From the IMG/VR virus record IMGVR_UViG_3300030107_002093, positions 1 through 64,000 of that record: a stretch of DNA of 64,000 bases; one strand, given 5' to 3'. Source of the stretch: a virus. The notes beneath the pieces are model-generated. The model was not told the DNA's origin. It saw only the letters and a list, made by a program, of their open reading frames with translations, and did no database searches. The translations under genes and the position numbers were made by a program. Below, piece by piece: positions 15,905 through 45,281 of the stretch (position 1 is its first letter; the number at the start of each line of letters is the position of its first letter).

Positions 15905-16224
15905 GTTGGCAATCTATCCTAAAAACCAATGGTCTAGTAGAGAAACTAGAGCCTAAACAGAAGAAGAGAATAAAGAAACTCCTACAGGCGGCTCAACCAA
16001 CAGAGTTCATGGGTCAGGAGATAGCGCAATTGTCTGATTTGTTGGAAGAGATGAAGGGTCTTGACTTAGTGAAGAACGATAAGAACATGCAGAAGAAGTT
16101 TGAGAAGTTCGATGAAAACAACTTAGACCTAGTTGCTACAGCCTCCGAACTACGGAAGGATTACGAGACACTATACAATCAGTTGAGAAAAGAGATTTAC
16201 CCAAAGAAGGAGAGGAAGAAATGA
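15901..16224 (+). CDS. coiled-coil protein with MSWQSILK tag
   Basis: GGAGG SD, 107 aa; start overlaps the upstream stop. Confidence 0.75.
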   Translation: MSWQSILKTNGLVEKLEPKQKKRIKKLLQAAQPTEFMGQEIAQLSDLLEEMKGLDLVKNDKNMQKKFEKFDENNLDLVATASELRKDYETLYNQLRKEIYPKKERKK

Positions 16225-16406
16225 GTTGGCAAGATATATTGAAGAAGATTCCCATCCCTAAAGAAACCGAAGGTAACTTTAGAGGAAAAGAACCTGCTAC
16301 TGCTGAAGGCAGATACGGCACTAAAGTCACACCCGAAGACATAGAAAGGGAAATGGAAGAAAGAAGAAAGGAAGATGAGGAACAAGGGATTCCTCCGATG
16401 GATTGA
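16221..16406 (+). CDS. small protein with MSWQDILK tag
   Basis: ATGA overlap; 61 aa. Confidence 0.7.
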   Translation: MSWQDILKKIPIPKETEGNFRGKEPATAEGRYGTKVTPEDIEREMEERRKEDEEQGIPPMD

Positions 16407-16816
16407 TTGAAATGAACATGAGAGGAATACTACAGGACAACCTTCGCAAGCAGAAGTGGTTCAGCATCATTAAGCAAGATATTGGTGACCTCGCTGGTGA
16501 GATTGCTGACATGCTGGACAACAACGAGGCCATTATGGGTGTGACTCCCGATGGTGACTACGATGACATGCTGGATGGATACAGGGACAGTGGTGAAACA
16601 CATGTTACAGACTACATCTCATTAGAGCCAACATACCAACACGAAGAGGATGAGGAAGTGACAATAGAATTCGATTTGAACTTCTGGGACTACAAAAATC
16701 ACCTTAGACTAGGTTCATATACAGGTGATAGTGGCTACTACATAGCGATGGAAGATTGGGGCGAGGAAGATAGAGAAGCACTACTGGCCCTGAAGGAACA
16801 TTTGGAGGAGATATAA
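16403..16816 (+). CDS. highly acidic protein with near-N-terminal WFSIIK motif
   Basis: Start uncertain (16403, 16412 or 16418); motif at 16457-16474. Confidence 0.7.
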   Translation: MIEMNMRGILQDNLRKQKWFSIIKQDIGDLAGEIADMLDNNEAIMGVTPDGDYDDMLDGYRDSGETHVTDYISLEPTYQHEEDEEVTIEFDLNFWDYKNHLRLGSYTGDSGYYIAMEDWGEEDREALLALKEHLEEI

Positions 16817-17052
16817 TGACAAGCGAAGAAAACAATGAGATGATACTACTACTGAAGGAACTAGTCAATAAAGTCAAGTCACTTGAGGAGGTCGTCTATC
16901 AGAAAGATAATCTACTTATGAAAAGTGGACTCGTAGTAGTTGATAGCCCAACGCCATCACTAGGCAATGAAACAACCGCATTCTCAGGAGATACAGTAGC
17001 AAAGATGGATTGGTCACAGATTAGCGATATCATAGAGACAATAGAGGGATAG
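16816..17052 (+). CDS. small coiled-coil protein resembling a miniature scaffold
   Basis: Heptad N-half, NLLMK-S, C-terminal MDWSQISDIIE similar to scaffold ISWSDIHSIVE. Confidence 0.65.
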   Translation: MTSEENNEMILLLKELVNKVKSLEEVVYQKDNLLMKSGLVVVDSPTPSLGNETTAFSGDTVAKMDWSQISDIIETIEG

Positions 17053-17053
17053 T

Positions 17054-17245
17054 ATGGCATGGAGAGAACTTCTGAAGAAAAACCTCGATGAAGAAGAGGA
17101 AGAACTTGAGAAGATACTACCCGCAGTGGCGGCAGGGGCAAGAGCCGCCGCCTCTTCACCTACAGGAAAGAAAGTAATAGCACAAGGCGCACAGATGGGT
17201 GCTAATTATGCAATGGACAAATATCAACAAAACAAAAAGCAGTGA
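17054..17245 (+). CDS. 63-aa protein: MAWRELLK tag, acidic spacer, amphipathic Ala/Gly-rich peptide
   Basis: Translated sequence; GAGG SD. Confidence 0.7.
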   Translation: MAWRELLKKNLDEEEEELEKILPAVAAGARAAASSPTGKKVIAQGAQMGANYAMDKYQQNKKQ

Positions 17246-17251
17246 TGAAAA

Positions 17252-17494
17252 ATGGCAACGAATCTACAGAATGTAAACAAGGCTATAGCAAAGGCCAAGG
17301 CAATTCTACAAGAAGCCGAACATCTAGGCATTATTGAGAACAAGGATGACTTGAAGGGTGAGGAAGTGAAGGTCAAGAAGCCCAAGAAAAATCCAGCAGA
17401 GGAGAAGATAAAGAATCCTACTGCCAAGGATGATACGTCATCTGGCTATGGTCACGTTGGTGACAAGCACTACATTGGTAAGACGGATAATTAG
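17252..17494 (+). CDS. small Lys-rich hypothetical protein
   Basis: 80-aa ORF within the operon. Confidence 0.65.
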   Translation: MATNLQNVNKAIAKAKAILQEAEHLGIIENKDDLKGEEVKVKKPKKNPAEEKIKNPTAKDDTSSGYGHVGDKHYIGKTDN

Positions 17495-17506
17495 GTGTGG
17501 GGATGA

Positions 17507-20149
17507 ATGCCTCACTCTGGTCTAGCGTTTGAGAAGGAAGAAGACGGACTCACGAAAAGAGTTCTAGATTTCTTTGAGCGAACCAGATTCGCCTATCTTT
17601 CTGCTAGGGAAGACCCATCTGAGTATGGCCCTAAGTGGAAGAAGATTGTCAAGAAACTCAGAGAGGACTTCGACCAGATAAGCAACTTCGCTAGGGAGTT
17701 GAAGAAATACGTCCAAGAGAAGGAACTCTTCGATGATGATGTATATGACCCAAAGTCCAGAACTGCTGAGACACTGTTCTCACAAGTGAAGGAGATGCGA
17801 TTCAAGTCAGAGAAGATAAGCGACCCATTCTCAAAACTACTAGGGGATGATGTGATTGATACCTTCATGCAAAAACCAGACGTATTCATATCATTCATTC
17901 ACTATGCGATGCGTTCACATCCCAATACCCTACCTGACAAGATTTGGGAGAAGCACGACTTGAAGCCTGATGAGATTACACAGGGAACAATGGGATTGGA
18001 TTTGAAGGTAGAGGATATCCCATTATACATCATAGAGCATTATGGGGCTGAGGGTAAAGATACTCGTAGGGTGAAATCGAAGTTCAAGGGAGCGTTTGCG
18101 AGATTGAAGGAGATGTATAATGATACATATCCTGAAGACAAGTGGGACTCATTGGTGGATTTGGATGTCGTCAAGGCAGAGAAGAGTGAAGAGGAGAAGC
18201 AAGAGGTAGATTTTCTGGTTCCTAACAAGCCCATGTATCGCATATTTGAAACAGATGATTTGAAGCAACTCAAGGGATTTAGTGGTGATTGGCTAGTTCA
18301 AGAGAAGTATGATGGAATGAGAATACAGATACACAAGGAAAAGGAAGACATCAAAATCTACTCCTATAACAAGAAGGACATAACCGAGAAATGTAAACTG
18401 CAAGTGAAGGAGATGCAGAAGAAGAACTTCGGGGATTGCATACTAGACGCTGAGTTAACATTGTTCCTTGATGATGAGCCACTACATAGAGCAGACACCG
18501 TATCCCATGTATTCAAGAAAGAAACCAAGGGTAGGTTATCTGCTCACGTTTTTGACATCATGAAGCATGAGGGCAAGATGATTGCAGATGAGCCATTGAG
18601 GGAGAGAATCAACATACTCTTCTACCAATACAGTTCCCACTCCACTGAGAACCTAGCCTTCCCATCGAAGAAGGACACTAGGATTGCTGATTCAATCAAG
18701 GAGGTCGAGGACTATTCAAAGGAGATAATGTCCCTACCTGCTTCTGAAGGAGTCGTCATCAAGGACATTGAATCGACATACATACTAGGAAAACAGAAGA
18801 ACCCCAAGTGGATTAAGTGGAAGAAGTTCGTTGACTTGGATGTAGTTGTATTGGATGACAAGAAAACGAAGAAGGGACTACATTCCTATAGCATGGGAAT
18901 AGGGCCAGTCAATGCTGAAACCGCAAGAAACTACAAGACTGTTGAGATGGGAGATAAGGCATACCTTCCTGTGGGGAAGGCTCTGAATACCAAGGAGAAG
19001 GTTAGTGTTGGTGATATCGTCAGAGTCAAGGTCGATGAGGTTAAGAAGACAAAGAATGGTTTCAGCCTGTATTCTGCCAAGGTCATTGAGATACCAGAAG
19101 TGACAGAATCCGATAAGGTGGATACTCTAGAACAACTCTCTACTAAGACGAAGAAGTCTCTTGAGTCTGCAATAGAGTATGTTGCTGGTAAGGCAATGGG
19201 TGATAGGTTCAAGGTTATGAGCGGGGTTCAAACTGCGGCCAAAGTAAAGACTGCTGGTGATATAGCCAGAAATAAAAAGAAGAAGAAGGTGAAGAAGGGC
19301 ATCTACATCACTGATGGTATACACGGAACTGCTGAGATTATCCTGAAGAGTGACTTGGATGGGTTTACCATTTACGGTTTTGAGGGAGATGAGTTGATGC
19401 AGAAGAACGCCCTCTACAACATAGATGAGTGGAAGGAAGAACTCAGCAAGATACTGAAGACCAAGAGGTCTGAACTCAGAATGGGAATCAGGAATGACAT
19501 TATCGAATACGGAGACAAGCCAAAGCCCTTCGACAAGATAGTTGATTTCGTAGCGAGGCATTACAAGGAAGTCTTTGAAGAACTGTTTGAGAGTAACCCA
19601 GAGAGGCTAATGTCATGGATGAAGAAGCAGGGAGATATCCAATATGTTCATCCGAACAAGTTCCAAGCAATGGATGATGTTCTAGAGAAGGACATAGAAG
19701 AAGTGAAAAAAAAAGACTCTCCTAAAAAAGGCGAATTTCAACTCTATCAACGAGAAGACGGAAACATAGACTTCGTTATTTCTGCTGGCGAAGAGAAGAT
19801 GGTTTGGACTATAGACATAGAAGATACGGAAGACGTATTCAATCTATTTGGGAAGTCAGGTAAATTCCCCGCTATAGTTGCTGATACCGTTAATGAGAAC
19901 AAACTATTGGATGCTGGTGAATTAGAACTAGGAGTTCAGAAGGATGGCTATCATGAATATCGTTTGGATGGTGACAAATTCCAGACTAGAATGCATCTTC
20001 GCGTAGTGCCATTGGATGAGCAGAAGGCATGGTTGGCTTGGACAGGAAAGAAGCAAGAGATGCTAGACAAGAAAGAGGATAAGGGAGTATGGAAAATTAC
20101 AGAAGATAAATGGGCTAATTTGCCATTTCCCAAGGAAAAGAGCGAGTAG
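17507..20149 (+). CDS. ATP-dependent DNA ligase (adenylation + OB domains) with large N- and C-terminal extensions
   Basis: Motif I QEKYDGMR, ILDAEL, HVFDIM, SEGVVIK, WIKWKK, then OB-fold segment; about 220-aa N-terminal and about 270-aa C-terminal extra domains. Confidence 0.88.
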   Translation: MPHSGLAFEKEEDGLTKRVLDFFERTRFAYLSAREDPSEYGPKWKKIVKKLREDFDQISNFARELKKYVQEKELFDDDVYDPKSRTAETLFSQVKEMRFKSEKISDPFSKLLGDDVIDTFMQKPDVFISFIHYAMRSHPNTLPDKIWEKHDLKPDEITQGTMGLDLKVEDIPLYIIEHYGAEGKDTRRVKSKFKGAFARLKEMYNDTYPEDKWDSLVDLDVVKAEKSEEEKQEVDFLVPNKPMYRIFETDDLKQLKGFSGDWLVQEKYDGMRIQIHKEKEDIKIYSYNKKDITEKCKLQVKEMQKKNFGDCILDAELTLFLDDEPLHRADTVSHVFKKETKGRLSAHVFDIMKHEGKMIADEPLRERINILFYQYSSHSTENLAFPSKKDTRIADSIKEVEDYSKEIMSLPASEGVVIKDIESTYILGKQKNPKWIKWKKFVDLDVVVLDDKKTKKGLHSYSMGIGPVNAETARNYKTVEMGDKAYLPVGKALNTKEKVSVGDIVRVKVDEVKKTKNGFSLYSAKVIEIPEVTESDKVDTLEQLSTKTKKSLESAIEYVAGKAMGDRFKVMSGVQTAAKVKTAGDIARNKKKKKVKKGIYITDGIHGTAEIILKSDLDGFTIYGFEGDELMQKNALYNIDEWKEELSKILKTKRSELRMGIRNDIIEYGDKPKPFDKIVDFVARHYKEVFEELFESNPERLMSWMKKQGDIQYVHPNKFQAMDDVLEKDIEEVKKKDSPKKGEFQLYQREDGNIDFVISAGEEKMVWTIDIEDTEDVFNLFGKSGKFPAIVADTVNENKLLDAGELELGVQKDGYHEYRLDGDKFQTRMHLRVVPLDEQKAWLAWTGKKQEMLDKKEDKGVWKITEDKWANLPFPKEKSE

Positions 20150-20170: not shown

Positions 20171-21385
20171 GTGATTGGAGTGTTAGCAACAACAGGAGTA
20201 TTATTGAAAGCAGAAAACAATGCTGAGTTTAGCATTCTGAAATCAGATAATCTAGTAATTGGAGGGTATGCATCTATAGAAATTGTAGACAAGCAAAACG
20301 ACTTAATTACACTAGAAGCATTGGAAGAAGCAGTCAAGAAATACATGACGAAAGAAAAATACAGAAATGTAATGTCAAATCATTCAAATGTTCAAGTCGG
20401 GGAGGTCATAGAAAAATACCGAGATTCCAACGGTGTCCTACACAAAACTGCTGTAGACGATGTTGGGTTCTATGTAGTAATCAAGATGCGCGATGACATC
20501 GAGAAGGCTAAGGAAATCTCAAGAGGTATTAGGAAAGGAACATTACGGTCTTTCAGCATAGGTGGACAGGCGATATCAAAGAAACAGAGAAAATCTGAGG
20601 AGTTTGGGGAATACAACGAGATAGAAAAACTTGAGTTGCATGAAGTTACTGTCTGTGAAAAAGGAATAAACCCGGAAGCAAAATTCGACATTTTGAAAAT
20701 GGAGGAAAAGAAAATGAGTGGAAAACTGGAAAAAGCCCTTGAGGAGTTGAATAGCCTGATGAAGCAGGTCAATTCGCTCCAAAAGGAAGAAGAAAGCGAA
20801 GAAATAATGGAGAAAGGTGACGAGTATATGGACACTGAACCCGAAGAGGACATGGGAGAAATGGGCGGCGAAGACGACCTAGAACTTTCAGACGACAGCG
20901 AGGAGAAGGCTCTTGATGAGGACTCAACAAGAGACTACGAGGCTGGCGAGGAAGTTGTTAGCGGCGGAAACCCGACTGCAACCCCAGCACCTCTGAAGGT
21001 TTCTAAGGGATTGGAGAATGGCGATTTCTCTACTCTTGACCTAAGTGTGGAGAATGTCGAGAAGGCATATGAAGCATTCAAGGCCGAGAAGTTAGAGGCA
21101 ATGGCATATGATTCCCTTAACAAGGAGTTCAGTGAGCGTCTAACCGCAGAACTGTCTGTAAAGAAGTCGGCGGCTGAGAGAGCAGAGTATGATGCTCGCA
21201 CAGACGTAGCGGCTCTTAAGGAAGAGTTCGCGGAACTACGCAAGTCCCTTTCGGCAGAAAGCGATGAGATAAAGAAGGCAAGAGAGGTTGCTTTTGAGAT
21301 TCCTGAAGGAATCCCAACCAATACTCTTCAGGCTTCTGAGATTTCATGGAGTGATATTCACAGTATTGTGGAGAGGTATCAGTGA
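20171..21385 (+). CDS. HK97-type prohead protease fused to acidic/coiled-coil scaffold
   Basis: IGGYAS..VDKQNDLI, SNH (His), RSFSIGG (Ser), LHEVTVCEKGINPEA; true start may be GTG 20180 after AGGTGA. Confidence 0.9.
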   Translation: MIGVLATTGVLLKAENNAEFSILKSDNLVIGGYASIEIVDKQNDLITLEALEEAVKKYMTKEKYRNVMSNHSNVQVGEVIEKYRDSNGVLHKTAVDDVGFYVVIKMRDDIEKAKEISRGIRKGTLRSFSIGGQAISKKQRKSEEFGEYNEIEKLELHEVTVCEKGINPEAKFDILKMEEKKMSGKLEKALEELNSLMKQVNSLQKEEESEEIMEKGDEYMDTEPEEDMGEMGGEDDLELSDDSEEKALDEDSTRDYEAGEEVVSGGNPTATPAPLKVSKGLENGDFSTLDLSVENVEKAYEAFKAEKLEAMAYDSLNKEFSERLTAELSVKKSAAERAEYDARTDVAALKEEFAELRKSLSAESDEIKKAREVAFEIPEGIPTNTLQASEISWSDIHSIVERYQ

Positions 21386-21396
21386 GGTGATTAAGT

Positions 21397-22767
21397 ATGA
21401 CAACAGGACATATTAGAACAATGGCAGACCTAGAAGCCGCAACCTACGGCATGGTCGGAGGAACAGGGAACGCCCTGCTAAAGAGCAGTGGAGTAGTTGG
21501 AGGACTCGGAACGCCACACGATGCGTCATCGAATGCCTTCAGTGCGGCAAGTGGTCTAGGTGACCTTTACAACTTGCTATACGGACAGAAAGTCTGGTCG
21601 ATGCTAAATCAGGAAGTCAATGCACTGTCAATGATTTCCAAGAGGCCATACACTTCCAGTGGTTGGAGAGTTCTAAAGAGCCGACCTGCTGGTGGTAGTG
21701 GCTCTGCATTCGGTATTGGAACAACTGACCCCGGTGCAAACACGGCTGACCTATCTGGAATAGCCGCCGACATGATTGGTGGTGTTGCAGAGAACGCTGA
21801 ACTTGGTGGAGATGCTTCTTTCAGAGCATTGTCGCCAGAATACACCAAACTATACGTCAGTCCAAAGACTGTTGCACATCTGTTTGAGTTCTCAGAACTT
21901 GGAATGGAGATGGCCGCAATTGACGATGGAGTAGGAGACATCCGCTCAATCGTTAGAGAGGACATGGGCAAGCACCACGCTGAAGTTCAGAACAAGATGC
22001 TACTAATGCCACTTGAGCATTACGACCACGCATCTTATGCTGACATCGAGAACAACTATACGTCACTATACAAGATTGTGTCGTCTGCTGGTGAACTAGC
22101 CGCAATGGGTGACGCAGACATGACTGCAAACAGCACTACCCCCGCAGACCTACCAACACAACTGGTTAGGATTTTCGGAGATGACAGGACTGTAACCAGA
22201 AGCGGTGGAGACTACACCGGAACGGATAACTTCCTTTCGGCTGAGGTTGACTTCGGTTCAGGATACGCCGCAGGTGACGCAAGAGTTCTAACACTGACTC
22301 TTCTAAACGACATGATTAGGAGAATCAGGCAGAACGGTGGAAACCCCAAGGTTATGCTAACTGGATACGATACTATCCAGCACATCTCAGACCTGCTACA
22401 GAGCCAAGAGAGGTTCATGGACAGGAAGGAGATTGTTCCAACGCACAACGGTGTAAGAGGAGTGAAGGGTGCAGAGGTTGGCTTTAGGGTCGCCACTTAC
22501 TACGACATCCCAATTATCCCAGCAAAGGACATGGCACAGACTGGTAACGCAACGGCTAACAAGTTGAGTGACATCATGCTACTAGACACAGACCATCTGT
22601 GGCTATCGGTCATGAAGCCTACTCAATACTTTGAGAACGGTATTACCAATGGTGACCCATTCGGCGTTGGTTCTCTAGGGAATCAGGGAATGTATCGCAC
22701 AATGGGCGAGACTGGTTGCTCCTTCTTCAAGGGCCAAGGAAAGATTACGAACATAACGAGTGCATAG
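21397..22767 (+). CDS. major capsid protein (HK97 fold)
   Basis: Follows protease, strong GAGGTGA SD, 456 aa, C-terminal FKGQGKITNI; candidate maturation site ALLK-S. Confidence 0.88.
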   Translation: MTTGHIRTMADLEAATYGMVGGTGNALLKSSGVVGGLGTPHDASSNAFSAASGLGDLYNLLYGQKVWSMLNQEVNALSMISKRPYTSSGWRVLKSRPAGGSGSAFGIGTTDPGANTADLSGIAADMIGGVAENAELGGDASFRALSPEYTKLYVSPKTVAHLFEFSELGMEMAAIDDGVGDIRSIVREDMGKHHAEVQNKMLLMPLEHYDHASYADIENNYTSLYKIVSSAGELAAMGDADMTANSTTPADLPTQLVRIFGDDRTVTRSGGDYTGTDNFLSAEVDFGSGYAAGDARVLTLTLLNDMIRRIRQNGGNPKVMLTGYDTIQHISDLLQSQERFMDRKEIVPTHNGVRGVKGAEVGFRVATYYDIPIIPAKDMAQTGNATANKLSDIMLLDTDHLWLSVMKPTQYFENGITNGDPFGVGSLGNQGMYRTMGETGCSFFKGQGKITNITSA

Positions 22768-23219: not shown

Positions 23220-23693
23220 ATGGCAGTAGTTAGAAGCAAGATTGGCAAGATGACTTGGAAGAACTATAGGTTTGACAGGAACGGAACCAGAGTTTCAACT
23301 AGTGATGCAATCATTCTATACGGCGATAGAAACGTCAAGGTAGAGTTCACTGCTGATGATAAAGCAACCATACAAAGACTAATGGAAACCTCACCTAAGA
23401 AGGTGAAGCACCTAGCCAAGTATCTCAACTTGCGTGGGCCTGATGCAAAGGAAGTTATGGATTCTCTATATCCTCGTTCTAGAAAAGAGAAGATAATCGG
23501 TAGAGCCAAGGTTCCAGAAGTCAAAGAAGAAGTAAAAGAAGAACCAAAGAAAGAAGAGAAAGAGGGAACTCCTCTTCCTCCTGACCTAAACAAACTCACT
23601 GTTAAGGTCTTGAAGGAACATCTAGAAGAGAGGAAACTTTCAACAGAAGGTAAAAAAGCAGACCTCATCAAGAGACTATCAGAGGATGGTTAG
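23220..23693 (+). CDS. protein with C-terminal SAP (HeH) domain
   Basis: DLNKLTVKVLKEHLEERKLSTEGKKADLIKRL matches the SAP consensus. Confidence 0.8.
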   Translation: MAVVRSKIGKMTWKNYRFDRNGTRVSTSDAIILYGDRNVKVEFTADDKATIQRLMETSPKKVKHLAKYLNLRGPDAKEVMDSLYPRSRKEKIIGRAKVPEVKEEVKEEPKKEEKEGTPLPPDLNKLTVKVLKEHLEERKLSTEGKKADLIKRLSEDG

Positions 23694-24002
23694 ATGAGTA
23701 GCGGAACATGCTTCAGTAGTGGTGTCAGAACTGCTGACGCAATTATTACCAAGAGTAGGTGTAAACTAATCTCAATTAGAGCATCTACAGTTACAGATGG
23801 AACATTCACCGTAAAGGTTTACGATAGTGCTGACAACGACCCAAGTGCGGCAGGTGAAGTAGAAGTAGCACGAATGCAAATACACTCCACTGGTGCAACC
23901 AGAGGGAATTCAATGGAATACGACATGCATGGGGTAGTATGCCAAAATGGTATCTTTGTTGATATCACTGGAACAGGTGCTTACTCAATAGAATATGCGT
24001 GA
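23694..24002 (+). CDS. small beta-rich protein, probably virion structural
   Basis: 102 aa; composition and position only. Confidence 0.55.
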   Translation: MSSGTCFSSGVRTADAIITKSRCKLISIRASTVTDGTFTVKVYDSADNDPSAAGEVEVARMQIHSTGATRGNSMEYDMHGVVCQNGIFVDITGTGAYSIEYA

Positions 24003-24007
24003 TTAAT

Positions 24008-24439
24008 ATGCCAAGTATAGATACAGACACAAGACTAGTGATGACAATACTGTTCGTAGGAGCAGTCAGTGGAATAAATATCTACTTTTATTCCCAATAT
24101 GGAATAACGTTCCCTTACGGTGCGGTTGAGCATTCATTGCTCTTCGGGATTAGCACCATTGGTGGGATAATGATAATGAAGGCATTGTTCGATATGGTCG
24201 TTAATGACTGGATTGAGGAATACCTACTACAAAGGAGAATAGACGCTTATTGGGCTAGGAAGGCTAGGGAAGAGGAGAACCGCAAGAGAGTCCGAGAGTC
24301 CTTCAGGCAGTTCCAGCAGAATTGGAATACCACAGTCGCTTCTCCCTCAAACATATACGGGGATAGCAACCTACCTAGTCTGAATCCAACCAAGGGAGGA
24401 GTAAACCCATCTTTCCTAACATTGGAGACTGAGCAGTAG
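24008..24439 (+). CDS. membrane protein, two TM helices plus cytoplasmic coiled coil
   Basis: LVMTILFVGAVSGINIYFY and LLFGISTIGGIMIMKALF hydrophobic stretches. Confidence 0.75.
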   Translation: MPSIDTDTRLVMTILFVGAVSGINIYFYSQYGITFPYGAVEHSLLFGISTIGGIMIMKALFDMVVNDWIEEYLLQRRIDAYWARKAREEENRKRVRESFRQFQQNWNTTVASPSNIYGDSNLPSLNPTKGGVNPSFLTLETEQ

Positions 24440-24451
24440 TGAGGCATATGA

Positions 24452-24676
24452 ATGGTCAGCGAAATCCTATTTGGAATGGATGAATCCACTCTCGCATATG
24501 ACCTTCAACGAGCGCATTCTGCTGACATCTGGTTTCTCAGGGCTAGGTTCTGGTTTTGGGGAATAGTTGGTGGGTTATCCAGTTTCGTATTAGGACAGGC
24601 TATGGCTATCCTCGGCATTAATACTCTCTCCATAGCATGGAATGGTCTAGTGGATTTCTGGAATCATCTGTGGTGA
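24452..24676 (+). CDS. small membrane protein
   Basis: FWFWGIVGGLSSFVLGQAMAILGI; Trp-rich C-terminal helix. Confidence 0.75.
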   Translation: MVSEILFGMDESTLAYDLQRAHSADIWFLRARFWFWGIVGGLSSFVLGQAMAILGINTLSIAWNGLVDFWNHLW

Positions 24677-24680
24677 TTGA

Positions 24681-25352
24681 ATGTCAGTAATGGCGGGTTT
24701 CGCCATACTTATTGTCGAAGGACTAAACAAGATATACCAAAGAGTCCATGCGATTAACTTCGGCATCTATGGTGCTAGTAGAGCAGGGAAGACGACATTG
24801 AATCATCAACTCAGGACAAGAGGGGAGGTTCCTGATATACGACATAGAACCGAGGGGATACAACGTGCCACTAGGAAATACGTCAAACTAGATGGTGACG
24901 CTCATACTGTCAAGACTGCTGATTTGGGAGGACAGACTGTCTATTGGCATGAATGGATAGAGGACATGCGCAATAGAAGACCGAAATACATCATCTTCAT
25001 GATAGATGATAGGCATATGAATAAGCACTATGACATAGAGCAACAACTGTGTTGGACATTCTTGGTGGATACTATCTGTGAACCATACTGGCATAACAGG
25101 AAGAGAAAGAAGAAAAAGAGAGAGATAGACTACCCTATTGCAGTTTCCATTTGGGCCAACAAATACGACTTATGGAAAGACAGGTATGACTATGATGGGC
25201 CAATAGAGAATCACCCCATCTTTGAGGCATTCAGAGCAGGTATGCAGAAGTTGAATGACAAGGGAATACCATGTCACAAATACATAGTCAGTGCTAAATC
25301 TGACTCGGAGATGGTATACAGGGGAGTCCTAACAATGATAAAGGACTACTAG
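24681..25352 (+). CDS. Ras-superfamily (Arf/Sar/Roc-like) small GTPase
   Basis: G1 GASRAGKT, G2 RTEG, G3 DLGGQ, G4 NKYD, G5 SAK; hydrophobic/amphipathic N-terminal helix. Confidence 0.88.
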   Translation: MSVMAGFAILIVEGLNKIYQRVHAINFGIYGASRAGKTTLNHQLRTRGEVPDIRHRTEGIQRATRKYVKLDGDAHTVKTADLGGQTVYWHEWIEDMRNRRPKYIIFMIDDRHMNKHYDIEQQLCWTFLVDTICEPYWHNRKRKKKKREIDYPIAVSIWANKYDLWKDRYDYDGPIENHPIFEAFRAGMQKLNDKGIPCHKYIVSAKSDSEMVYRGVLTMIKDY

Positions 25353-25364
25353 AGGTGAAGACCC

Positions 25365-26039
25365 ATGAGTATGCAGTTTCAGCCACCTAGCCTCATCGGT
25401 GCTAATTCTACAAACGTAACTAATAATGCGTTTATGGATAGACAGTCTGCGGCGAGAGCGGCAGGTGCAGTAACACAATATGAGTATAAGAACACGAAGC
25501 CAAAGAAACAACTTAAGGAAATAATCAAAATCCTAAAACCAGAATCTAAGAGATTCCTAAAGATTCCATACAAGTTCAAGTATAATATCAAGGATAGATG
25601 TGTGGTTTGTGGAACTCACAAGGTTTGGGATGCCAGTGATAACCTAAGACCGCCATTACCTCTACACAAGGTTCGCAAGGGATATCCAATGAGAGGAACA
25701 TACTGTGAGAAACATGCTGGCATTCATAGGCAGTATGAAATGCTAGAGCAACAGATTCTAGCAGATGAACACGGACTATCCTTTAGCGCATATATTCCAA
25801 AGGCTCCTACAATGCAATCCTTGAACCCTCTAGCCTCTGGGCCTCTAACGAGTTTGAAAGCAACAGATATTGCTTCGTTGGGGTCATTGGGATGGACAAT
25901 CAAACCACCTGTCTCTGAAACAGAGAGTAGGGAAGAAGAATTATTCAGACTTGTCATAGAATCCAGCACAATCAACGAAAGGGTGAAAACATTATTGACT
26001 GAGGGGGCTAAGGTAGCACCAGTGGAGGGTGAGCAGTAA
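25365..26039 (+). CDS. Zn-finger protein
   Basis: CVVC...CEKH; GAGGTGA SD. Confidence 0.7.
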   Translation: MSMQFQPPSLIGANSTNVTNNAFMDRQSAARAAGAVTQYEYKNTKPKKQLKEIIKILKPESKRFLKIPYKFKYNIKDRCVVCGTHKVWDASDNLRPPLPLHKVRKGYPMRGTYCEKHAGIHRQYEMLEQQILADEHGLSFSAYIPKAPTMQSLNPLASGPLTSLKATDIASLGSLGWTIKPPVSETESREEELFRLVIESSTINERVKTLLTEGAKVAPVEGEQ

Positions 26040-26749
26040 TGGGACTATTTGGAACAAGTAATTCAAATTTGATGAATACAATGCAAACTAATCAACAAGC
26101 ACAGTTCAAAACTATGAACAATTTGTTGACGCTTCAAGAGAACCACGTTGAGGATTTCTTCCAATATCACGGTGAGGCATTCCTAGCGGCATTGGCTCAA
26201 TTGATTGAGGATACCGTGGAGAAGGTTCTTGGGCAAATGCTACCACAATTGAAATTCCAAACAGACAGTTCTGGTGTCCTTAACATGCATTCTGATTCTA
26301 CAACTGCCTTTGGAAACATCACTGAGGCTAACATCAACTTAGACCTCCAAGCACTCCTTGCCTCGGCAATAAACTCAGAGGTAATAATGCAAAGGAGAAT
26401 GGCAAAGGCACAGTATCTAGAATCACAGGGATTCGCTATGCCAGCAGGGGAACAAATGCCAGCAAACAACATGGGAGGAATGGGACAGATGAATCCGGGT
26501 GGGATTGACCCATCACAGATACAAGGTGGCAACGCTTCTGTCCAAATGAACAATACCATGATGCAACAACAGATGGCGTTCAACAACCAATCTGGATATC
26601 CAGTCCCACCTGCTGGCTATGACAATATGAATAACCCATACTGGATTGACCCTAATACAGGGCAGATGTCCTATACACCACCTGCAAGTGGTCTTGGTCT
26701 TGCTAATGCCGTAAGTAAGGGCATTGCTTGGGCTAAGTGGCTTGCATAG
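26039..26749 (+). CDS. Q/N/M/G-rich low-complexity protein with C-terminal amphipathic helix
   Basis: MGGMGQMNPGG...MMQQQM, YPVPPAGY, ends GLGLANAVSKGIAWAKWLA. Confidence 0.75.
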   Translation: MGLFGTSNSNLMNTMQTNQQAQFKTMNNLLTLQENHVEDFFQYHGEAFLAALAQLIEDTVEKVLGQMLPQLKFQTDSSGVLNMHSDSTTAFGNITEANINLDLQALLASAINSEVIMQRRMAKAQYLESQGFAMPAGEQMPANNMGGMGQMNPGGIDPSQIQGGNASVQMNNTMMQQQMAFNNQSGYPVPPAGYDNMNNPYWIDPNTGQMSYTPPASGLGLANAVSKGIAWAKWLA

Positions 26750-30010: not shown

Positions 30011-30530
30011 GGTAACTTTCCTAATTAGACTCCTAAGTGATAATTGGGCATCAGCCGCTTCTGCTTTGGTTAGTAGCGGTGATATAACATCCAACCACAA
30101 TGAGACTCCTAATTTCATAGATGTCCGTTCAATTGCTCCTAATGAGGGGAGAAGAGTCGATATGGATTCAAAGTCAGTAGTTATCGTCTATGAGGACAGT
30201 GGCTCTACTGAGTATCCAACAATCGATTATGCAGTAAGAAACGAGACATTCGGTTTCACTGTTCACATTAGAACTATGCATAGGAGGGATTTCTCCGAAC
30301 TTACGTTCTCTAGGGATAGGCTTCAATCACTCTATAGGATAGCGAGATATATCCTTGAGAATAATAGTCTACAACCAAAGGTATATGTTGGCGGTAATAG
30401 TAGCAATAACGTAGAGGACAGTGCGCAACTAATCAAACTACAGAGTAGGAGTGAAGCCAACGATAGGAACAAAAGGTTATTGGGCTACAAGTTAACGGTT
30501 GAGATGAAGAGGATGGCTATCAGCGTCTAG
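30003..30530 (+). CDS. putative tail terminator/completion protein
   Basis: Size, alpha/beta pattern, directly upstream of tail tube. Confidence 0.55.
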   Translation: MDEVTFLIRLLSDNWASAASALVSSGDITSNHNETPNFIDVRSIAPNEGRRVDMDSKSVVIVYEDSGSTEYPTIDYAVRNETFGFTVHIRTMHRRDFSELTFSRDRLQSLYRIARYILENNSLQPKVYVGGNSSNNVEDSAQLIKLQSRSEANDRNKRLLGYKLTVEMKRMAISV

Positions 30531-30543
30531 GTGTGAGAAAAAA

Positions 30544-32238
30544 ATGGCAAATAGCAATTCACTAAATCAGCAGGTTTGGGTTGGTGCAGGGGCATCGGCT
30601 ACTATGATACCAGAGATGAATATTTACCTTGATGCATGTGACGGAGATGGTGCTAACCCCACAGGAGTGACTGTAGAAAATCTAGGCTCAGGAGCAAATG
30701 CTTTCCTATTAGTTCCTGACCTATATGTTGGATGTATGGCTAGGATAAGAAATAACGATGATACTTCTTTCAGTGGAATAGCAATGATTACCGCTAACAC
30801 TACTAACGCCATTACCTTTGATAGAACCATAGGTAGTAGTGCAGACAACAACGATATTGATGTTACCATACTTGCTTTTGGCGCACCGTCACCTGCTCCG
30901 GCTATCACAAAGAACAGTGCGGCTCGCCCTTCATTACTGGCAGACAATTGGTTAGGTCTTGTGAATACTGTTTCACCCCCATCCGTAGATGTAGAACTAG
31001 GGCAGATATCACTAGCACTTTCCGGTAGAGATTTTGGCTACCAATTCAAGAAAAATGAGACAATAAGTGGTGGTTCAATTGATATGTCCCTGAACAATGG
31101 TTCTTGGTTATACTATGCATTAGGGAAAATTGCTACAGTAACTCATACAAGCACATCTCAAGTTCTACAAGCATCTAGTGATGTGATGACTGGCCTCCAT
31201 GCTAATTCCAAGACTAAATTTATCAGAGCATTTAGTGGAATGACGTTTCCTCCATCAGAGGCAAGCACATTTCATATTGCAAACGGTAATGCAGGTGCAG
31301 ATGGCGCATTATCCGGAACTACGGAATTATATGAAGTAGGGGCAGGTGTCATAACATACGGATTCGGGACTTCAGATGGTGATGCTCTCCCATCATTTGC
31401 TCTAGAAATAACGATGGAAAAAGACGGGTTAACATCCGATGAGTATTATGTTGGTTCTGAAGGAAGTAGTGCTGAGGCATCTTCTGCTTATTCATCCAAT
31501 AGACCATTCAAGGATGTTTATTCAAGAATATTTACAGGATGTCAAGTAAATACTCTTACTCTTAATTTTGAAGAAGGACAAGAAGTGAAGACAAATCTAG
31601 AATTAGTAAGTAGAAGAGCATTTGACTCTCCACAAAACTACGTTCCAAAGAACGGAGTAACGACTCATACATCACTTTTCAATTACAACACTACTCAAAA
31701 CGATGATGCTGACCATAGAACTTCTAGAGATTCAGAACCATTCTTGTTCTCAGAAGGAGTGATTGAGGTATTCGGTCAAACTGTTGCTAGAGTTAAAAGT
31801 GGAAGTCTAACCATTAACAATAACATCACTCCTCAGAGATTCATCGGCACATATGACAGAGGGATAACCACTGCACATATCCCCGGTCAAAGAAACTATG
31901 AGGTTTCATTGACTCTATTAGTTACTGATACTGATATTTGGGATAATCTAAGAAGACAAGGAGAACATGACAGTTTGACTACTACTGACCCACATACTGG
32001 TAGTGCATCTACTGATGAAACTCTTACTCTTAAATTCCAGAAAAATGCAAATGACATTATTCAAATTCAGTTGGACAATTACATCATACAATCTATGGAT
32101 GTTCCCTTCCCTGAAGACAAGGGGCCAATAGAAATGGCAGTGACACTTTCTGCTAGAACTTTAGTTGAAGGAAACAGTGCTACTCCTACGGGAACATATT
32201 ACAAAGGTAAGTGGGTTATCCAAAATATAGATACTTAG
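30544..32238 (+). CDS. major tail tube protein with insertion domains
   Basis: LPSFALE, RIFTGCQVNTLTLN, SGSLTINNN, GQRNYEVSLT tube-like segments; upstream of chaperone and TMP. Confidence 0.8.
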   Translation: MANSNSLNQQVWVGAGASATMIPEMNIYLDACDGDGANPTGVTVENLGSGANAFLLVPDLYVGCMARIRNNDDTSFSGIAMITANTTNAITFDRTIGSSADNNDIDVTILAFGAPSPAPAITKNSAARPSLLADNWLGLVNTVSPPSVDVELGQISLALSGRDFGYQFKKNETISGGSIDMSLNNGSWLYYALGKIATVTHTSTSQVLQASSDVMTGLHANSKTKFIRAFSGMTFPPSEASTFHIANGNAGADGALSGTTELYEVGAGVITYGFGTSDGDALPSFALEITMEKDGLTSDEYYVGSEGSSAEASSAYSSNRPFKDVYSRIFTGCQVNTLTLNFEEGQEVKTNLELVSRRAFDSPQNYVPKNGVTTHTSLFNYNTTQNDDADHRTSRDSEPFLFSEGVIEVFGQTVARVKSGSLTINNNITPQRFIGTYDRGITTAHIPGQRNYEVSLTLLVTDTDIWDNLRRQGEHDSLTTTDPHTGSASTDETLTLKFQKNANDIIQIQLDNYIIQSMDVPFPEDKGPIEMAVTLSARTLVEGNSATPTGTYYKGKWVIQNIDT

Positions 32239-32267
32239 GAGGGATATCAAGAGTAACGATATCTCTC
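32239..32267 (+). terminator. 10-bp stem-loop directly after tail tube stop
   Basis: gagggatatc / aagagtaac / gatatctctc with one G-U pair. Confidence 0.55.
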
Positions 32268-32324
32268 AAAAACATTCCACCAACACTGTTTGTTTGTTGG
32301 TTAGAAAAAAAGGTGGAATAAGAA

Positions 32325-32684
32325 ATGACAAATGTAGTAAATGATAAGAGTATGCTGTTCGCAAGGACAGAAACAGAATGCCATGAGTTGAAGGTAAGTC
32401 CTGACTCAGATGAAATAATGAAAGTGTGGGTAAAGGAACCCACATGGTTGCAAGTGGAAAAGGCGACCTCACAGTTAATGGATATTAATGCTAGAACACA
32501 AGAAATGGAAATAAACATGAATAAACTATACAAATACCTAGTGACAGAATTCATTGAGAAGACAGAACCCCCATTAGAGCCATTAGATATCCTACGGTTG
32601 AGTCCATATATTGGTGCGCAATTAAAGGAAGTCCTACCAAACCCCTTCATGGAGATAGGGGATGATACGGGAAAAGCCGATTAA
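32325..32684 (+). CDS. tail assembly chaperone (lambda gpG-like)
   Basis: Between tube and TMP; ends at a slippery site. Confidence 0.75.
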   Translation: MTNVVNDKSMLFARTETECHELKVSPDSDEIMKVWVKEPTWLQVEKATSQLMDINARTQEMEINMNKLYKYLVTEFIEKTEPPLEPLDILRLSPYIGAQLKEVLPNPFMEIGDDTGKAD

Positions 32685-32884
32685 TTAGAAAAGCAATAAG
32701 TGGAGGAGAGGTAGAGCCGGAAATAGCATACAAGATATTGCTATATTCCTATTGTAAAGTTTTCAGCATAAATCCAATGGAGGCCAAACACACAACGATT
32801 TCGACAATGGTAGAAATGTTACTTATTCATGGGGAAGTAGAGAAATACAAATCAGAAGAAATACAGAAGCAGATAAAGAAGTGA
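32669..32884 (+). CDS. -1 frameshift extension of chaperone (gpGT-like)
   Basis: G GGA AAA heptamer at 32669-32675 in X XXY YYZ phase; -1 frame open to TGA 32882-32884 (GKSRLIRKA...FSINPMEA...QIKK). Confidence 0.8.
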   Translation, partial: GKSRLIRKAISGGEVEPEIAYKILLYSYCKVFSINPMEAKHTTISTMVEMLLIHGEVEKYKSEEIQKQIKK

Positions 32885-32888
32885 GTGA

Positions 32889-34145
32889 ATGGCAGATGAA
32901 ATTTATTCCATAGCCGCCGCTAACAAAGAACTCTCTGAAAGTTTCAGCCAACTTGGAGGAGGAATGGCGGAAGCCGCCAGTAAATCCAAGGCGTGGAACG
33001 TAGTTAGCAGAATGACTTCTGGTAGTGGGTTCTGGAAGGTGCAGAATAAATTTCGTGCAGTTGCCGATGCCGTTTCAGCATACAACGAGAACGTGAAGGA
33101 GTCCATAAAAGCCCAGAGTGAGATGGCTGACACTATGGCTAAACTGAAGAAAGCAAGAGACAACATGCCAGCCCCGATAGCAGACGCATATGGCGGTGTT
33201 GACTTCGATAAATCTGAGGTTATGCAGACGAAGGAGTATCAAGATGCCGAAGCAACATACAAGAAGGCGTTTGGTGAGGATGATTACCAAGATATACTTC
33301 TAGCAGACATCAAGGAACAACTATCAATAAACAATGAATTGGTTACGGAGTTAGAAAACAAAGCCATAGATGATTTGCGATATTCAAAACTAGGATGGAG
33401 ATTAGACAAGAAGGCATATTTCAAAGCGCAGAAGATGTGGAAGTTCACTAAGAACCTCTTCAAGATGGCAACTAGGTTCTTAGTTGGAGCCATGTTTGGA
33501 ATGTTACTCCTAATCCTGTTCTTGCCTCTAGCGATTAAATTCTTCAAGAACTTCAAGGGTATATTATCCGACATGGGTATGAGTCTAGGAATGGATGACA
33601 TAAAGAAAGCACTCACTTTTGTAAAGGACATACTAACTGCGGTATTTGATATATTCAAAGCGATATTCAAGGGAAACGTAGTTGAGGCGTTGAAGATATA
33701 CGTTGAACGGATTCTTATCCCAATAGGCAAGGTTATTTGGGGCGCGGCAAAGAAACTGCCTTATTTGATATTTGCAATTCTGAAAGCATTAGTGAAAACA
33801 ATTATTGACACCGTTAAGGGCATTATCGATTTCATTCAAGGCGGTGGGATAAAGAAGGCTGGTGGATGGCTAAAGAAGAAAATCACTGGAAGGGCAACGG
33901 GTGGAATAGTAAATGAGGATATAACCCTAGTTGGAGAAAACGGCCCAGAACTAGTCTCACTACCTAATGGGGCAAGGGTGCATACGAATAGTCAATCAAG
34001 GCGAATGGCTGGGAACACAATACACGTTCATGTTAATGGCAGGGTTGGTGCATCTGATGCTGAGATAAGGGACATTGCCCAGAAGGTCGCTAGGGAGATT
34101 GGATTGCAGATGAATAGAACGACAAGTGCGAGGTCTGGTTTCTAA
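32889..34145 (+). CDS. tape measure protein (short, 418 aa)
   Basis: Follows chaperone; TM segment, amphipathic repeats, C-terminal RATGGIV...LVGENGPELV motif. Confidence 0.8.
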   Translation: MADEIYSIAAANKELSESFSQLGGGMAEAASKSKAWNVVSRMTSGSGFWKVQNKFRAVADAVSAYNENVKESIKAQSEMADTMAKLKKARDNMPAPIADAYGGVDFDKSEVMQTKEYQDAEATYKKAFGEDDYQDILLADIKEQLSINNELVTELENKAIDDLRYSKLGWRLDKKAYFKAQKMWKFTKNLFKMATRFLVGAMFGMLLLILFLPLAIKFFKNFKGILSDMGMSLGMDDIKKALTFVKDILTAVFDIFKAIFKGNVVEALKIYVERILIPIGKVIWGAAKKLPYLIFAILKALVKTIIDTVKGIIDFIQGGGIKKAGGWLKKKITGRATGGIVNEDITLVGENGPELVSLPNGARVHTNSQSRRMAGNTIHVHVNGRVGASDAEIRDIAQKVAREIGLQMNRTTSARSGF

Positions 34146-34840
34146 TGGCTGGTGAGAACTTTGCAAATTTCAAGGTCTTCCTAGAACTACAAAGGAGGAA
34201 CGACTATGGTGGAGGAACCACAAATCGTATTCCCCTCTTTGCTGATAGCGTGACCATTAACACTTCCAAGACAGTAATGAACATGGGTGTGCCATTTTCA
34301 GGAGCAATCCAAGGGGAGTCACTTAGCCTAGCCTTCGATGTGGGCATGGCACAGAAGACTGTCAATATCAGTGGACAGTTGCTTGGTCAGAAAATAAAGA
34401 AACAGAGAGATGGTGAAGCCGCCAAGGAAGTCAACCTAACTTCATTTGAGATGGCTCAACTAATACACTCGTATGTGGATGCATCTACTTTTCAAGATGA
34501 CCAGAATTTCAACAAACTGATAGTGCTGGGGCCAAGTAGGGTTGACCACACTTTTGCCTATCATGGAGGAGACAACGCACTTGCCACAAAGGACGTATCA
34601 GAACTACAGACTATACCCTTCTCATGGAAGAACAGGGGATATGACAATCTGTTTGCAAGTGCTGGGTCTAACTCAGAGTATTTCACCCCATATACAGGAG
34701 CAGAAGACGTTACTGTGGGAATGACTGGGTTCATCCGCTCTTTCAACACTACGATAACTGGAGCAGAGTTTCCAGCAATAGGTTTCACATTGGACTTTGA
34801 AGAGGCATATGTCCTTGCGGAGAATTTCTTGGATGGGTGA
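34145..34840 (+). CDS. putative distal tail (Dit-like) protein
   Basis: Directly after TMP; C-terminal MTGFIRSFNTT...FTLDFEEA. Confidence 0.55.
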   Translation: MAGENFANFKVFLELQRRNDYGGGTTNRIPLFADSVTINTSKTVMNMGVPFSGAIQGESLSLAFDVGMAQKTVNISGQLLGQKIKKQRDGEAAKEVNLTSFEMAQLIHSYVDASTFQDDQNFNKLIVLGPSRVDHTFAYHGGDNALATKDVSELQTIPFSWKNRGYDNLFASAGSNSEYFTPYTGAEDVTVGMTGFIRSFNTTITGAEFPAIGFTLDFEEAYVLAENFLDG

Positions 34841-34842
34841 AT

Positions 34843-44952: not shown

Positions 44953-45281
44953 TAGTAGATAGTGGAAAGGAAGCATTAGCATCAACAATGGCAAGCACGT
45001 TTACAAAGGTAAGAATAGGCAATGGCGGCGATGACACGGCATCTTCGCAGACTGCTTTGGATGCCTTCGTAGCAGAGAAGACAGTAACCCCTTCTAGAAT
45101 AGGGTCACAGTTGGTTTGGACTGCTTCTTTCACTGGTGCAGAGATTGGAACACAAGGAGTGTCAGAAATCGGAATATTCAATACCGCCGATACCCTATTG
45201 AGCCGAGTTACCTTCACGAATACTGGAGTAGTGCCATCGGCAGATACAGTGACATTCACAATTAGATTGGAGGTAGATTAA
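44949..45281 (+). CDS. small baseplate/fibre-attachment protein
   Basis: IVDSGK...IGNG...EIGIFN...LLSRVTF pattern seen in tail-fibre/collar N-terminal domains. Confidence 0.6.
   Translation: MIVDSGKEALASTMASTFTKVRIGNGGDDTASSQTALDAFVAEKTVTPSRIGSQLVWTASFTGAEIGTQGVSEIGIFNTADTLLSRVTFTNTGVVPSADTVTFTIRLEVD

Follow-up and report, generated by a model that had tools for sequence, protein, structure and literature searches.

A conserved five-gene magrovirus cassette built around a divergent Arf-like small GTPase, a candidate membrane-associated switch

Small GTPases of the Arf family carry an amphipathic helix in front of the G domain, and in the signal recognition particle receptor subunit SR-β an Arf-like GTPase is tethered to the membrane through a hydrophobic segment at its N-terminus. 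The holin-based lysis cassettes of tailed phages encode small membrane proteins that are expressed late and bear a charged tail on the cytoplasmic side. In Euryarchaeota, ArvA and its partners drive membrane vesiculation (PMC10927574). This ArvABC system (OapABC), present in Haloferax volcanii and other Euryarchaeota, includes a small GTPase of the Arf/Sar type, whose N-terminal helix seeks the membrane, and the Zn-ribbon protein ArvC, the gene for which lies downstream of that of the GTPase (PMC10927574). A recent review calls the way in which tailed archaeal viruses leave their hosts completely uncharacterised; it also covers PVAP, the protein of the virus-associated pyramids of Sulfolobus viruses, a viral membrane protein opening an S-layer-type envelope for egress (PMC10791045). 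PVAP comes from crenarchaeal viruses that lack tails, is one small protein with no GTPase involved, and has neither sequence nor architectural similarity to the locus reported here.

This locus belongs to a tailed magrovirus with a complete genome of 102.7 kb, whose hosts are Marine Group II archaea. The window, i.e. the whole stretch of 64,000 nucleotides that was analysed, represents the late operon of the virus and contains five consecutive genes, termed g1 to g5, which are compared below with the systems outlined above.

Layout, inheritance and distribution of the cassette

The five open reading frames occupy positions 24008–26749, as given in the preliminary description, all on the + strand, and the tight linkage claimed there corresponds to a spacing of −1 to 12 nt:

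g1, 24008–24439, + strand: predicted membrane protein of 143 residues (146 residues from an alternative GTG start at 23999)
g2, 24452–24676, + strand: small protein of 74 residues with one predicted transmembrane (TM) segment
g3, 24681–25352, + strand: Arf-like small GTPase of 223 residues
g4, 25365–26039, + strand: Cys/His protein of 224 residues
g5, 26039–26749, + strand: Q/N/M-rich protein of 236 residues

An NCBIfam scan of g1–g5 matched nothing but the generic small_GTP domain, which scored under the cut-off. The assignment of the block to the late operon holds. It is flanked by the capsid gene on one side and the neck/tail-tube genes on the other, within the virion genes. This placement in the window clade would suit an assembly role too.

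All 69 close loci that extend across the whole block contain the five genes in an identical order, and the architecture recurs in three deeper clades, making four in total, with GTPases that are 27–30% identical. The five-part order is present in 80 of 80 clade-2 loci and is also found in clades 3 and 4. Since the loci were retrieved via g3, the presence of g3 is guaranteed and its apparent conservation inflated. Profile–profile alignments (hhalign) indicate homology of g3, g4 and g5 between the clades. In the spanning loci, the regions directly adjoining the cassette vary much more than the cassette itself. In clade 2, the cassette precedes the packaging genes and lies far from the head genes. 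In one genome of a deeper clade (G002), it is located at the start of the late operon, behind an ORF of 3038 residues and directly in front of an HTH gene, itself followed by the terminase gene, at a distance of 21 kb from the capsid gene, which indicates that the cassette moves as a unit. The five genes are thus inherited and relocated as one unit inside the late (virion-gene) transcription block. Co-conservation and relocation thereby bear out the previous view of a single conserved unit around a real GTPase, accompanied by two predicted membrane proteins. The dN/dS values of the cassette genes range from 0.06 to 0.09 (g1, 0.08; g2, 0.09; g5, 0.09) compared to 0.13 for the capsid gene.

The position of the window-clade cassette between the capsid and neck/tail-tube genes, its late-block location in all clades and a conservation equal to that of core virion genes would also be consistent with a morphogenesis factor, namely a platform anchored in the membrane, or else a GTP-dependent chaperone, that helps to assemble head, neck or tail or to position packaging and has no action on the membrane as such. 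However, the neighbours of the cassette differ between clades at a constant order of the virion genes, and the cassette is lacking from tailed viruses of haloarchaea and methanogens whose capsid genes are related; moreover, we know of no tailed-virus assembly pathway in which small GTPases or integral membrane proteins are required. Such a role therefore appears quite unlikely. An assignment as head–tail connector genes was rejected, because the gene order in the cassette is fixed but its neighbourhood shifts between clades, whereas the virion genes remain collinear.

A g3 profile search gave 85 matches, none of them named, among 1.84 billion (1.84e9) representatives; a named ArvA could not be recognised in this set. 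Among 185,579 species genomes a relative was encountered on one contig, which is mis-binned, and no relative was found among the INPHARED phages. As judged from these sequence searches, the GTPase family is virus-only.

The Arf-like GTPase g3

The small GTPase had been described as complete, which is confirmed by motifs G1–G5, invariant in 23 sequences, and by the small-GTPase fold of the structural model. The signature in the alignment of these 23 sequences consists of GxxxxGKTT, the switch-I residue Thr57, DxGG, NKxD and SAK, and the core motif residues are retained in the clades at 27–30% identity. The following elements were located:

24681–24746, + strand: hydrophobic/amphipathic N-terminal helix, residues 1–22, ahead of the G domain
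24771–24797, + strand: G1/P-loop, G31-A-S-R-A-G36-K37-T38-T39, invariant and kept in distant clades
24921–24935, + strand: G3/switch II, D81-L-G83-G84-Q85
25098–25121, + strand: polybasic insert between G3 and G4, R140–R147 (RKRKKKKR)
25158–25169, + strand: G4, N160-K161-Y-D163, invariant
25290–25298, + strand: G5, S204-A205-K206, invariant within the clade

The AF2 model of g3 (pTM 0.70) was related with a probability of 1.0 to Ras-superfamily chains by Foldseek, and AF2, Foldseek and VIA agree on the six-stranded α/β fold of a G domain. The closest G-domain folds are those of the Arf family, comprising Arl6, Arl3, Arl2, Arf1, Arf6, Arl8, Sar1 and Asgard ArfR, e.g. GerdArfR1 (PDB 8OUM/8OUN), with VIA Z-scores of 12.4–14.5. 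The top rows are occupied by Arl6, Arl3, Arl2 and Arf1 (Z 13.4–14.5, rmsd 2.7–3.1 over ca. 157 residues), where rows less than 1 Z unit apart count as tied. The best 50 rows mostly contain Arf, Arl and ArfR proteins and include Rag/Gtr, Gα and Sar1; Ras, Rab and Rho are absent from them. On the sequence level, the best match in the PDB is likewise an Asgard Arf-like protein (8oun, E 0.006). The Pfam family Arf (PF00025) is matched by most members of the g3 family, namely 10 of 17 at E ≤ 0.05 with a best value of 4.2e-9, and g3 itself scores 16.8 bits, below the gathering cut-off of 22.3. The SRPRB family (PF09439) is matched weakly by 4 of the 17 members and by g3 with 17.0 bits (E 0.004) at a cut-off of 25. 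In contrast to SR-β, the cassette contains no SR-α-like partner and has no link to translocation. A search for longer, fused forms of the GTPase found none, a result of little weight.

Arf-like features of g3 are the P-loop xAGKTT, the TxG of switch I, the DxGGQ motif followed by two Trp residues and the hydrophobic helix preceding the G domain. Switch II reads DLGGQtvyWheW and thus provides the aromatic residues after DxGGQ that characterize the Arf family. The N-terminal segment is modelled as a single helix (residues 2–22, AF2) with a hydrophobic moment μH of 0.42 and a mean hydrophobicity <H> of 0.32, about 1.5 sd over the mean of the protein; the GTPases of every clade possess a helix of the same character and different sequence. 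According to the model, g3 thus shares with the Arf family an amphipathic helix before the G domain. In contrast to Arf proteins, to which it is only 13–20% identical, g3 has a Ras-like G5 motif (SAK), lacks Gly2 and carries a polybasic insert before G4, whose basic stretch is kept in all clades. It also differs in being encoded by the virus of a non-Asgard archaeon and in having no known counterparts of the Arf GEFs, GAPs or coat partners. Sequence and model together identify g3 as a real but very divergent small GTPase of the Arf type, complete and strongly constrained.

The catalytic Gln position following DxGG is occupied by Gln or Glu within the window clade and by His or Ala in the other clades, so that hydrolysis by g3 may be slow, GAP-dependent or dispensable. 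This variability could be taken to mean that the protein is a nucleotide-binding scaffold with no switching cycle and that the activity of the cassette is independent of GTP hydrolysis. Against this view, G1, the G2 Thr, the DxGG of G3, G4 and G5 are invariant in the clade, with core residues kept across clades; moreover, Sar1 has a His and Rap a Thr at the equivalent position and both still cycle. We consider a mere scaffold very unlikely.

Membrane proteins, lysis functions and soluble partners

Hydropathy analysis, extended like that of conservation over 58 orthologues, agrees with the earlier description of g1 as a protein with two TM segments, which were located at residues 9–29 and 43–65 and are followed by a strongly charged, basic C-terminal tail. 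Its description of g2 as a small TM protein is likewise upheld by one hydrophobic segment, which succeeds a soluble, highly conserved N-terminus of about 35 residues and precedes a Trp-rich C-terminal tail. Among the + strand ORFs of the late operon, TM segments were otherwise only found in the tape-measure-like protein. In clades 2–4, g1 has equivalents in architecture and position (the counterpart being termed h1), and a small ORF of the g2 type is present, including loci missed by the HMM; hhalign detected no significant sequence similarity between the clades for either g1/h1 or g2/h2. Both g1 and g2 are predicted to be small integral membrane proteins.

Two TM segments with a basic tail in g1 and one TM segment in g2 correspond to a holin-type architecture, a likeness that concerns architecture only. 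In clade 2, the cassette occupies a position in front of the packaging genes where the lysis genes of some phages are located. In contrast to holin cassettes, the viral cassette has no adjacent wall-degrading enzyme and no match to a holin family: Pfam gave none for the five proteins, and the best PHROG hit was phrog_9987 for g2 with an E-value of 0.28. To our knowledge, no described lysis cassette contains a counterpart of the GTPase and the two soluble orphan proteins. The Pfam and PHROG scans agree with the original remark that holin and endolysin genes are lacking in the window. A separate recognisable lysis cassette, which might otherwise account for egress, was not found in the 102.7-kb genome either (window plus ORFs of at least 90 residues elsewhere), and peptidase, glycosidase and amidase families are absent from the cassette, the window and the other genome ORFs of at least 90 residues. 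Other small ORFs with TM segments exist in the early region, and g1 and g2 are consequently not the sole possible holin-like genes.

The location within the virion gene block, together with the occurrence of TM-bearing ejection proteins among the structural genes of some phages, also raises the alternative that g1, g2 and others are packaged into the virion and form a channel for DNA delivery during entry, like phage ejection proteins. This appears highly improbable, because motifs for capsid targeting or protease sites were not seen by eye in the five proteins, the clade-2 cassette is far from the head genes and a packaged small GTPase is, as far as we know, unprecedented.

The conserved core of g4 (approximately residues 45–135) is composed of a basic helix, a small β knuckle domain and a long helix, predicted by AF2 with pLDDT values of 71–91. 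It contains a putative metal site:

25599–25715, + strand: g4 residues C79, C82, C114 and H117

The preliminary designation of g4 as a Zn-finger protein is adequate for the window clade, where the pattern C79-x2-C82 … C114-x2-H117 is present. It does not describe a constant of the family, since C82 is replaced by Asp in most clade-2 and clade-3 proteins and clade 4 no longer has the second knuckle. In alignment A5, C79 and C114 are invariant and H117 is conserved to at least 90%. Clade-1 and clade-2 proteins are matched by hhalign with 96.6% probability (E 6e-10), and the 1145 relatives in metagenomes are all devoid of annotation. No PDB fold match was obtained, the best Foldseek E-value against the PDB being 2 and the VIA-wide comparison reaching Z ≤ 4.2 with every row a tied helical hairpin. 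Among these tied rows are the Rab-binding helical hairpins of Rabenosyn-5, LidA and rabphilin, which are mentioned as a lead only. For the predicted complex between g3 and the g4 core the median score was 0.28, with the mark at 0.32, a value that argues in neither direction on binding.

In g5, a conserved N-terminal domain (approximately residues 36–128) is followed by a low-complexity middle part rich in Gln, Asn, Met and Gly and by a conserved C-terminus of small residues, GLGLANAVSKGIAWAKWLA. The Q/N/M-rich character noted before is evident; the C-terminus, which had been called amphipathic, is only moderately so (μH 0.38). The hhalign probability between clades 1 and 2 is 94% (E 1.5e-7). 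An ESM Atlas search yielded nothing informative for g4 or g5. From the sequence comparisons, g4 and g5 are orphan soluble proteins that are homologous across the clades.

Proposed function and implications

A known system close to the cassette is ArvABC, whose GTPase resembles g3 as far as can be judged from its description (PMC10927574). The ArvABC GTPase gene lies just upstream of those of small partners, one of them Cys-rich and metal-binding, as the Cys/His protein g4 follows g3. ArvABC acts on the archaeal cytoplasmic membrane, and by analogy the site of the viral proteins may be similar. The partners themselves are different: TM partners, of which the viral cassette has two, are absent from ArvABC; OapB/ArvB (DUF2073, PF09846) is not matched by g4 or g5 at E ≤ 1 nor found in six frames of the whole genome, for which the Haloferax volcanii control was positive; and OapC/ArvC (DUF2072 Zn ribbon, PF09845) is found neither in g4 nor in the genome. 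Thus, g4 is a different Cys/His protein from ArvC in the same relative position.

These relations suggest a further alternative, namely that the cassette takes over host membranes for purposes other than egress, the viral Arf-like switch replacing or subverting an ArvA-like vesiculation or trafficking GTPase. Possible purposes would be a replication or assembly compartment, the shedding of vesicles or decoys, or a block of superinfection. The euryarchaeal vesiculation by ArvA with its downstream Zn-ribbon protein, on the one hand, and the Arf-like fold of g3, its N-terminal helix and the succeeding Cys/His protein, on the other, are in line with such a takeover. However, genes for this purpose and for exclusion are usually early, whereas the cassette resides in the late block, and the genome lacks a match to the ArvB and ArvC families. 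We regard the takeover as unlikely.

The best reading of the architecture, the late-operon position and the analogy to ArvABC and Arf/Sar1 is that the cassette probably acts on membranes as a GTP switch. That it serves egress specifically is possible, if somewhat on the unlikely side. Taken as one, the explanation that the five genes are specific to magroviruses and specify a GTP switch at the membrane, whose most likely purpose would be virion release, is put forward tentatively, as its chances appear slightly less than even. In this scenario, g3 in its GTP state would place the N-terminal helix into the host cytoplasmic membrane beside g1 and g2 and would recruit g4 and g5 to it. For the low-complexity and small-residue segments of g4 and g5, self-association or membrane insertion is conceivable. 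The resulting assembly would deform or breach the membrane late in infection, with the nucleotide state serving as a timer or licence, and its most likely purpose would be the release of virions from a host whose envelope consists of no more than a membrane and a surface layer of protein. A bolder version, in which the cassette constitutes the missing egress machine of the tailed viruses of S-layer-type archaea, helix-anchored g3 nucleating an assembly of g1, g2, g4 and g5 for a nucleotide-timed opening of the membrane, has to be considered fairly unlikely.

The cassette is not mentioned in the searchable papers on magroviruses. In the surface oceans, few pairs of cell and virus are as abundant as Marine Group II archaea and their magroviruses. 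As a deeply conserved, virus-only combination of an Arf-like switch with its own membrane proteins, the cassette offers five concrete candidate genes for archaeal-virus egress. In the case of an assembly role, g3 would be the first small GTPase required for building a tailed virion. If the cassette acts on membranes, it would represent a minimal, self-contained biochemical system, and prokaryotic viruses would join the users of membrane remodelling by GTPases, a typically eukaryotic process that has lately been discovered in Euryarchaeota as well (ArvA). If its purpose is indeed egress, the cassette would be a prokaryotic-virus counterpart of this eukaryote-style process.

The late half of the genome

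The virus record is 102,725 bases long and rated complete; the window covers its bases 1-64000. This stretch represents the late half, encoded on the + strand, of a magrovirus-type tailed virus of archaea. Its genes outside the five-gene cassette include the following:

Genes of the window surrounding the cassette
9848-11290, +, T4-type large terminase
11299-12750, +, gene between terminase and portal
12753-14390, +, portal
17507-20149, +, ATP-dependent DNA ligase, within the structural block
20171-21385, +, S78 prohead protease
21397-22767, +, HK97-type capsid protein
23220-23693, +, protein of 157 aa carrying a SAP DNA-binding motif at its C-terminus (PF02037, E 1.5e-10), between capsid gene and cassette
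30544-32238, +, tail tube protein
37813-44952 and 45281-54340, +, giant ORFs of 2379 and 3019 aa
54340-55110 and 55323-56054, +, two ConA-like lectin (Laminin_G_3) proteins (E 5e-18 and 1e-12), following the giant ORFs

The capsid protein shares 23-25% identity with its counterparts in Haloarcula tailed viruses, and a ligase in the structural module is a described magrovirus trait (PMC5434244). In G002, a complete 118-kb virus genome with a cassette of a deeper clade (clade 2), this ligase is part of one ORF of ca. 2395 aa (30522-37709, region L169), compared to 880 aa in the window. The gene between terminase and portal, for which a Pfam scan at E ≤ 0.01 indicated no family, has an orthologue of 28% identity at the same position in G002. 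The SAP protein is weakly conserved, with a mean identity of 52% among relatives and no counterpart in many loci. The giant ORFs, which match no Pfam family, and the Laminin_G_3 proteins are probably tail components involved in host recognition. The rest of the genome (64001-102725, regions L174 and L175) encodes a split PolB, a second ligase, an RFC-like AAA protein and a PD-(D/E)XK nuclease; one further ORF matches the ThiF (E1-like adenylyltransferase) family (E 2e-15).

Conservation and relocation of the cassette

The five-gene block described in preliminary form at 24008-26749 was recovered there as five tightly packed + strand ORFs, which fill this stretch with intergenic gaps of -1 to 12 nt:

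Genes of the cassette, in order
g1, +, 143 aa, two hydrophobic segments and a basic tail
g2, +, 74 aa, very conserved 35-residue N-terminus, one hydrophobic segment, Trp-rich end
g3, +, 223 aa, small GTPase with GxxxxGKTT, Thr57, DLGGQ, NKYD and SAK, a hydrophobic N-terminal helix and a polybasic insert
g4, +, 224 aa, C79-x2-C82 and C114-x2-H117
g5, +, 236 aa, conserved N-terminal domain, Q/N/M/G-rich middle, conserved small-residue C-terminus

Pfam, PHROGs and NCBIfam provided no family for g1, g2, g4 or g5. In the confidently modelled g4 core (pLDDT 71-91), a small knuckle domain lies between a first helix and a second, long one; the core has no convincing neighbour among PDB structures, and none of the 1145 clusters of the g4 family is annotated. 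Pairwise dN/dS, with dS near saturation, lies at 0.06-0.09 in every cassette gene versus 0.13 in the capsid gene.

Co-conservation of the five genes, on which the preliminary description had made its reading depend, was found in four clades. Among 80 IMG/VR loci carrying g3 at 75-99% identity (clade 1, the window's own), 69 span the block, and all 69 have the five genes in the same order. Mean identities are 81.5% for g3, a value inflated by the selection of loci through g3 itself, 74.6% for the capsid protein, 74.5% for g4, 73.9% for g2, 71.1% for g5 and 66.0% for g1, whereas the immediate flanks of the cassette are far more variable (p102, 45%; p649, mostly undetectable). The same five-part order recurs in all 80 loci of clade 2, whose GTPase is 28% identical, a g2-like ORF missed by the HMM having been found by eye in 11 of them. 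Profile comparison between clades 1 and 2 relates the GTPases (E 2e-39), the g4-like proteins (E 6e-10; 96.6%) and the g5-like proteins (E 1.5e-7; 94%); the g1 and g2 counterparts lack significant similarity, yet are collinear and alike in build. The pattern is repeated in clades 3 and 4. In clade 4, an additional acidic protein of 256-260 aa with a long poly-Asp/Glu tail separates the g2-like gene from the GTPase (L181:7229-7999, L190:7217-7999), and the g4-like protein is without the second Cys/His knuckle. Several more small TM proteins are found downstream of the clade-4 cassette.

The virion genes of G002 (terminase, endonuclease-like gene, portal, ligase, protease, capsid, neck and tube) are collinear with those of the window, in which the cassette is located between the capsid and neck genes. 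In G002 it lies at 14975-18158, with the capsid gene 21 kb further downstream. A 3038-aa ORF directly precedes it there, and it is directly followed by the orthologue of the HTH gene at 1732-2388 of the window, a gene located ahead of the terminase. The cassette thus moves as a unit. An internal order that is kept while the neighbours change is good evidence that the five genes form a functional unit, and speaks against reading g1-g5 as ordinary head-tail connector genes.

The GTPase g3

Across 23 aligned relatives (60-92% identity) the g3 motifs do not vary, except for residue 85 (24933-24935, +), which follows DxGG; it alternates between Gln and Glu among close relatives and is His or Ala in deeper clades. 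In Arf and Ras this position is occupied by the catalytic Gln. As a single sequence, g3 matched Roc, SRPRB, MMR_HSR1 and Arf below the Pfam cut-off (E ~0.004), and the best PDB sequences found by its profile were an Asgard Arf-like protein (E 0.006) and KRas (E 0.02). The AlphaFold model (pLDDT 66, pTM 0.70) matched Ras-superfamily structures with a Foldseek probability of 1.0. Structural re-alignment placed Arl6, Arl3, Arl2, Arf1, Arf6, Arl1, Arl8 and Asgard ArfR, and also Rag/Gtr, G-alpha and Sar1, in the top rows (Z 12.4-14.5, rmsd ~3 over ~157 residues), among which Ras, Rab and Rho do not occur. Across 17 diverse family members Arf was the most frequent Pfam family (10/17, best E 4e-9), and a hydrophobic moment of 0.42 was calculated for the N-terminal helix. 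Because of its structural neighbours, the Arf matches across the family and this helix, we classify g3 as an Arf-like small GTPase outside the curated Arf family.

The g3 profile gave 85 matches at E ≤ 0.001 among 1.84 billion representative proteins, mostly fragments of its own family, with a few full-length relatives (27-30% identity); the close family comprises 351 clusters in marine metagenomes. Only one contig among 185,579 species genomes matched (NZMJ01000101.1, 28.9 kb, 69% identity). This contig, binned in the bacterial "MAG: Maricaulis sp.", most likely consists of viral DNA placed there in error, apparently a magrovirus fragment.

Membrane context and possible role

Within the + strand late block, hydrophobic segments are confined to g1, g2 and a tape-measure-like protein. 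Family scans of the 64-kb window detected neither holin families nor families of peptidases, glycosidases or amidases; Pfam and PHROG thereby agree with the earlier statement that a recognisable holin or endolysin is absent from it. The 43 ORFs of at least 90 aa in the rest of the genome belong, as far as families were found, to replication-type families only. A few small TM ORFs occur in the early region. Two of these contain two hydrophobic segments each and are further holin-like candidates, to be weighed in the egress reading:

92210-92470 of the whole genome (L175:8210-8470), -, 86-aa ORF
96967-97167 of the whole genome (L175:12967-13167), -, 66-aa ORF

A review describes the egress machinery of archaeal tailed viruses as uncharacterised and states that no holin has been identified in this group (PMC10791045).

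The closest working analogy to the viral cassette, g3 being set beside ArvA by description, is the archaeal vesiculating GTPase operon ArvABC (OapABC). In Haloferax, its Arf/Sar-like GTPase drives vesicle formation with downstream SepF-like and Zn-ribbon proteins (PMC10927574). The viral cassette, too, has a Cys/His protein behind its GTPase, but matches to the ArvB and ArvC families are absent from it and from the whole genome. In the papers searched, a viral small GTPase was never linked with magroviruses or archaeal Caudoviricetes. The membrane and GTPase egress module originally proposed is thus partly supported: it exists as a unit, with a genuine GTPase and a predicted link to the membrane, while its role in egress or membrane remodelling is one that we infer. 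The cassette is an undescribed variant of the GTPase-plus-membrane-partner systems, encoded by a prokaryotic virus.
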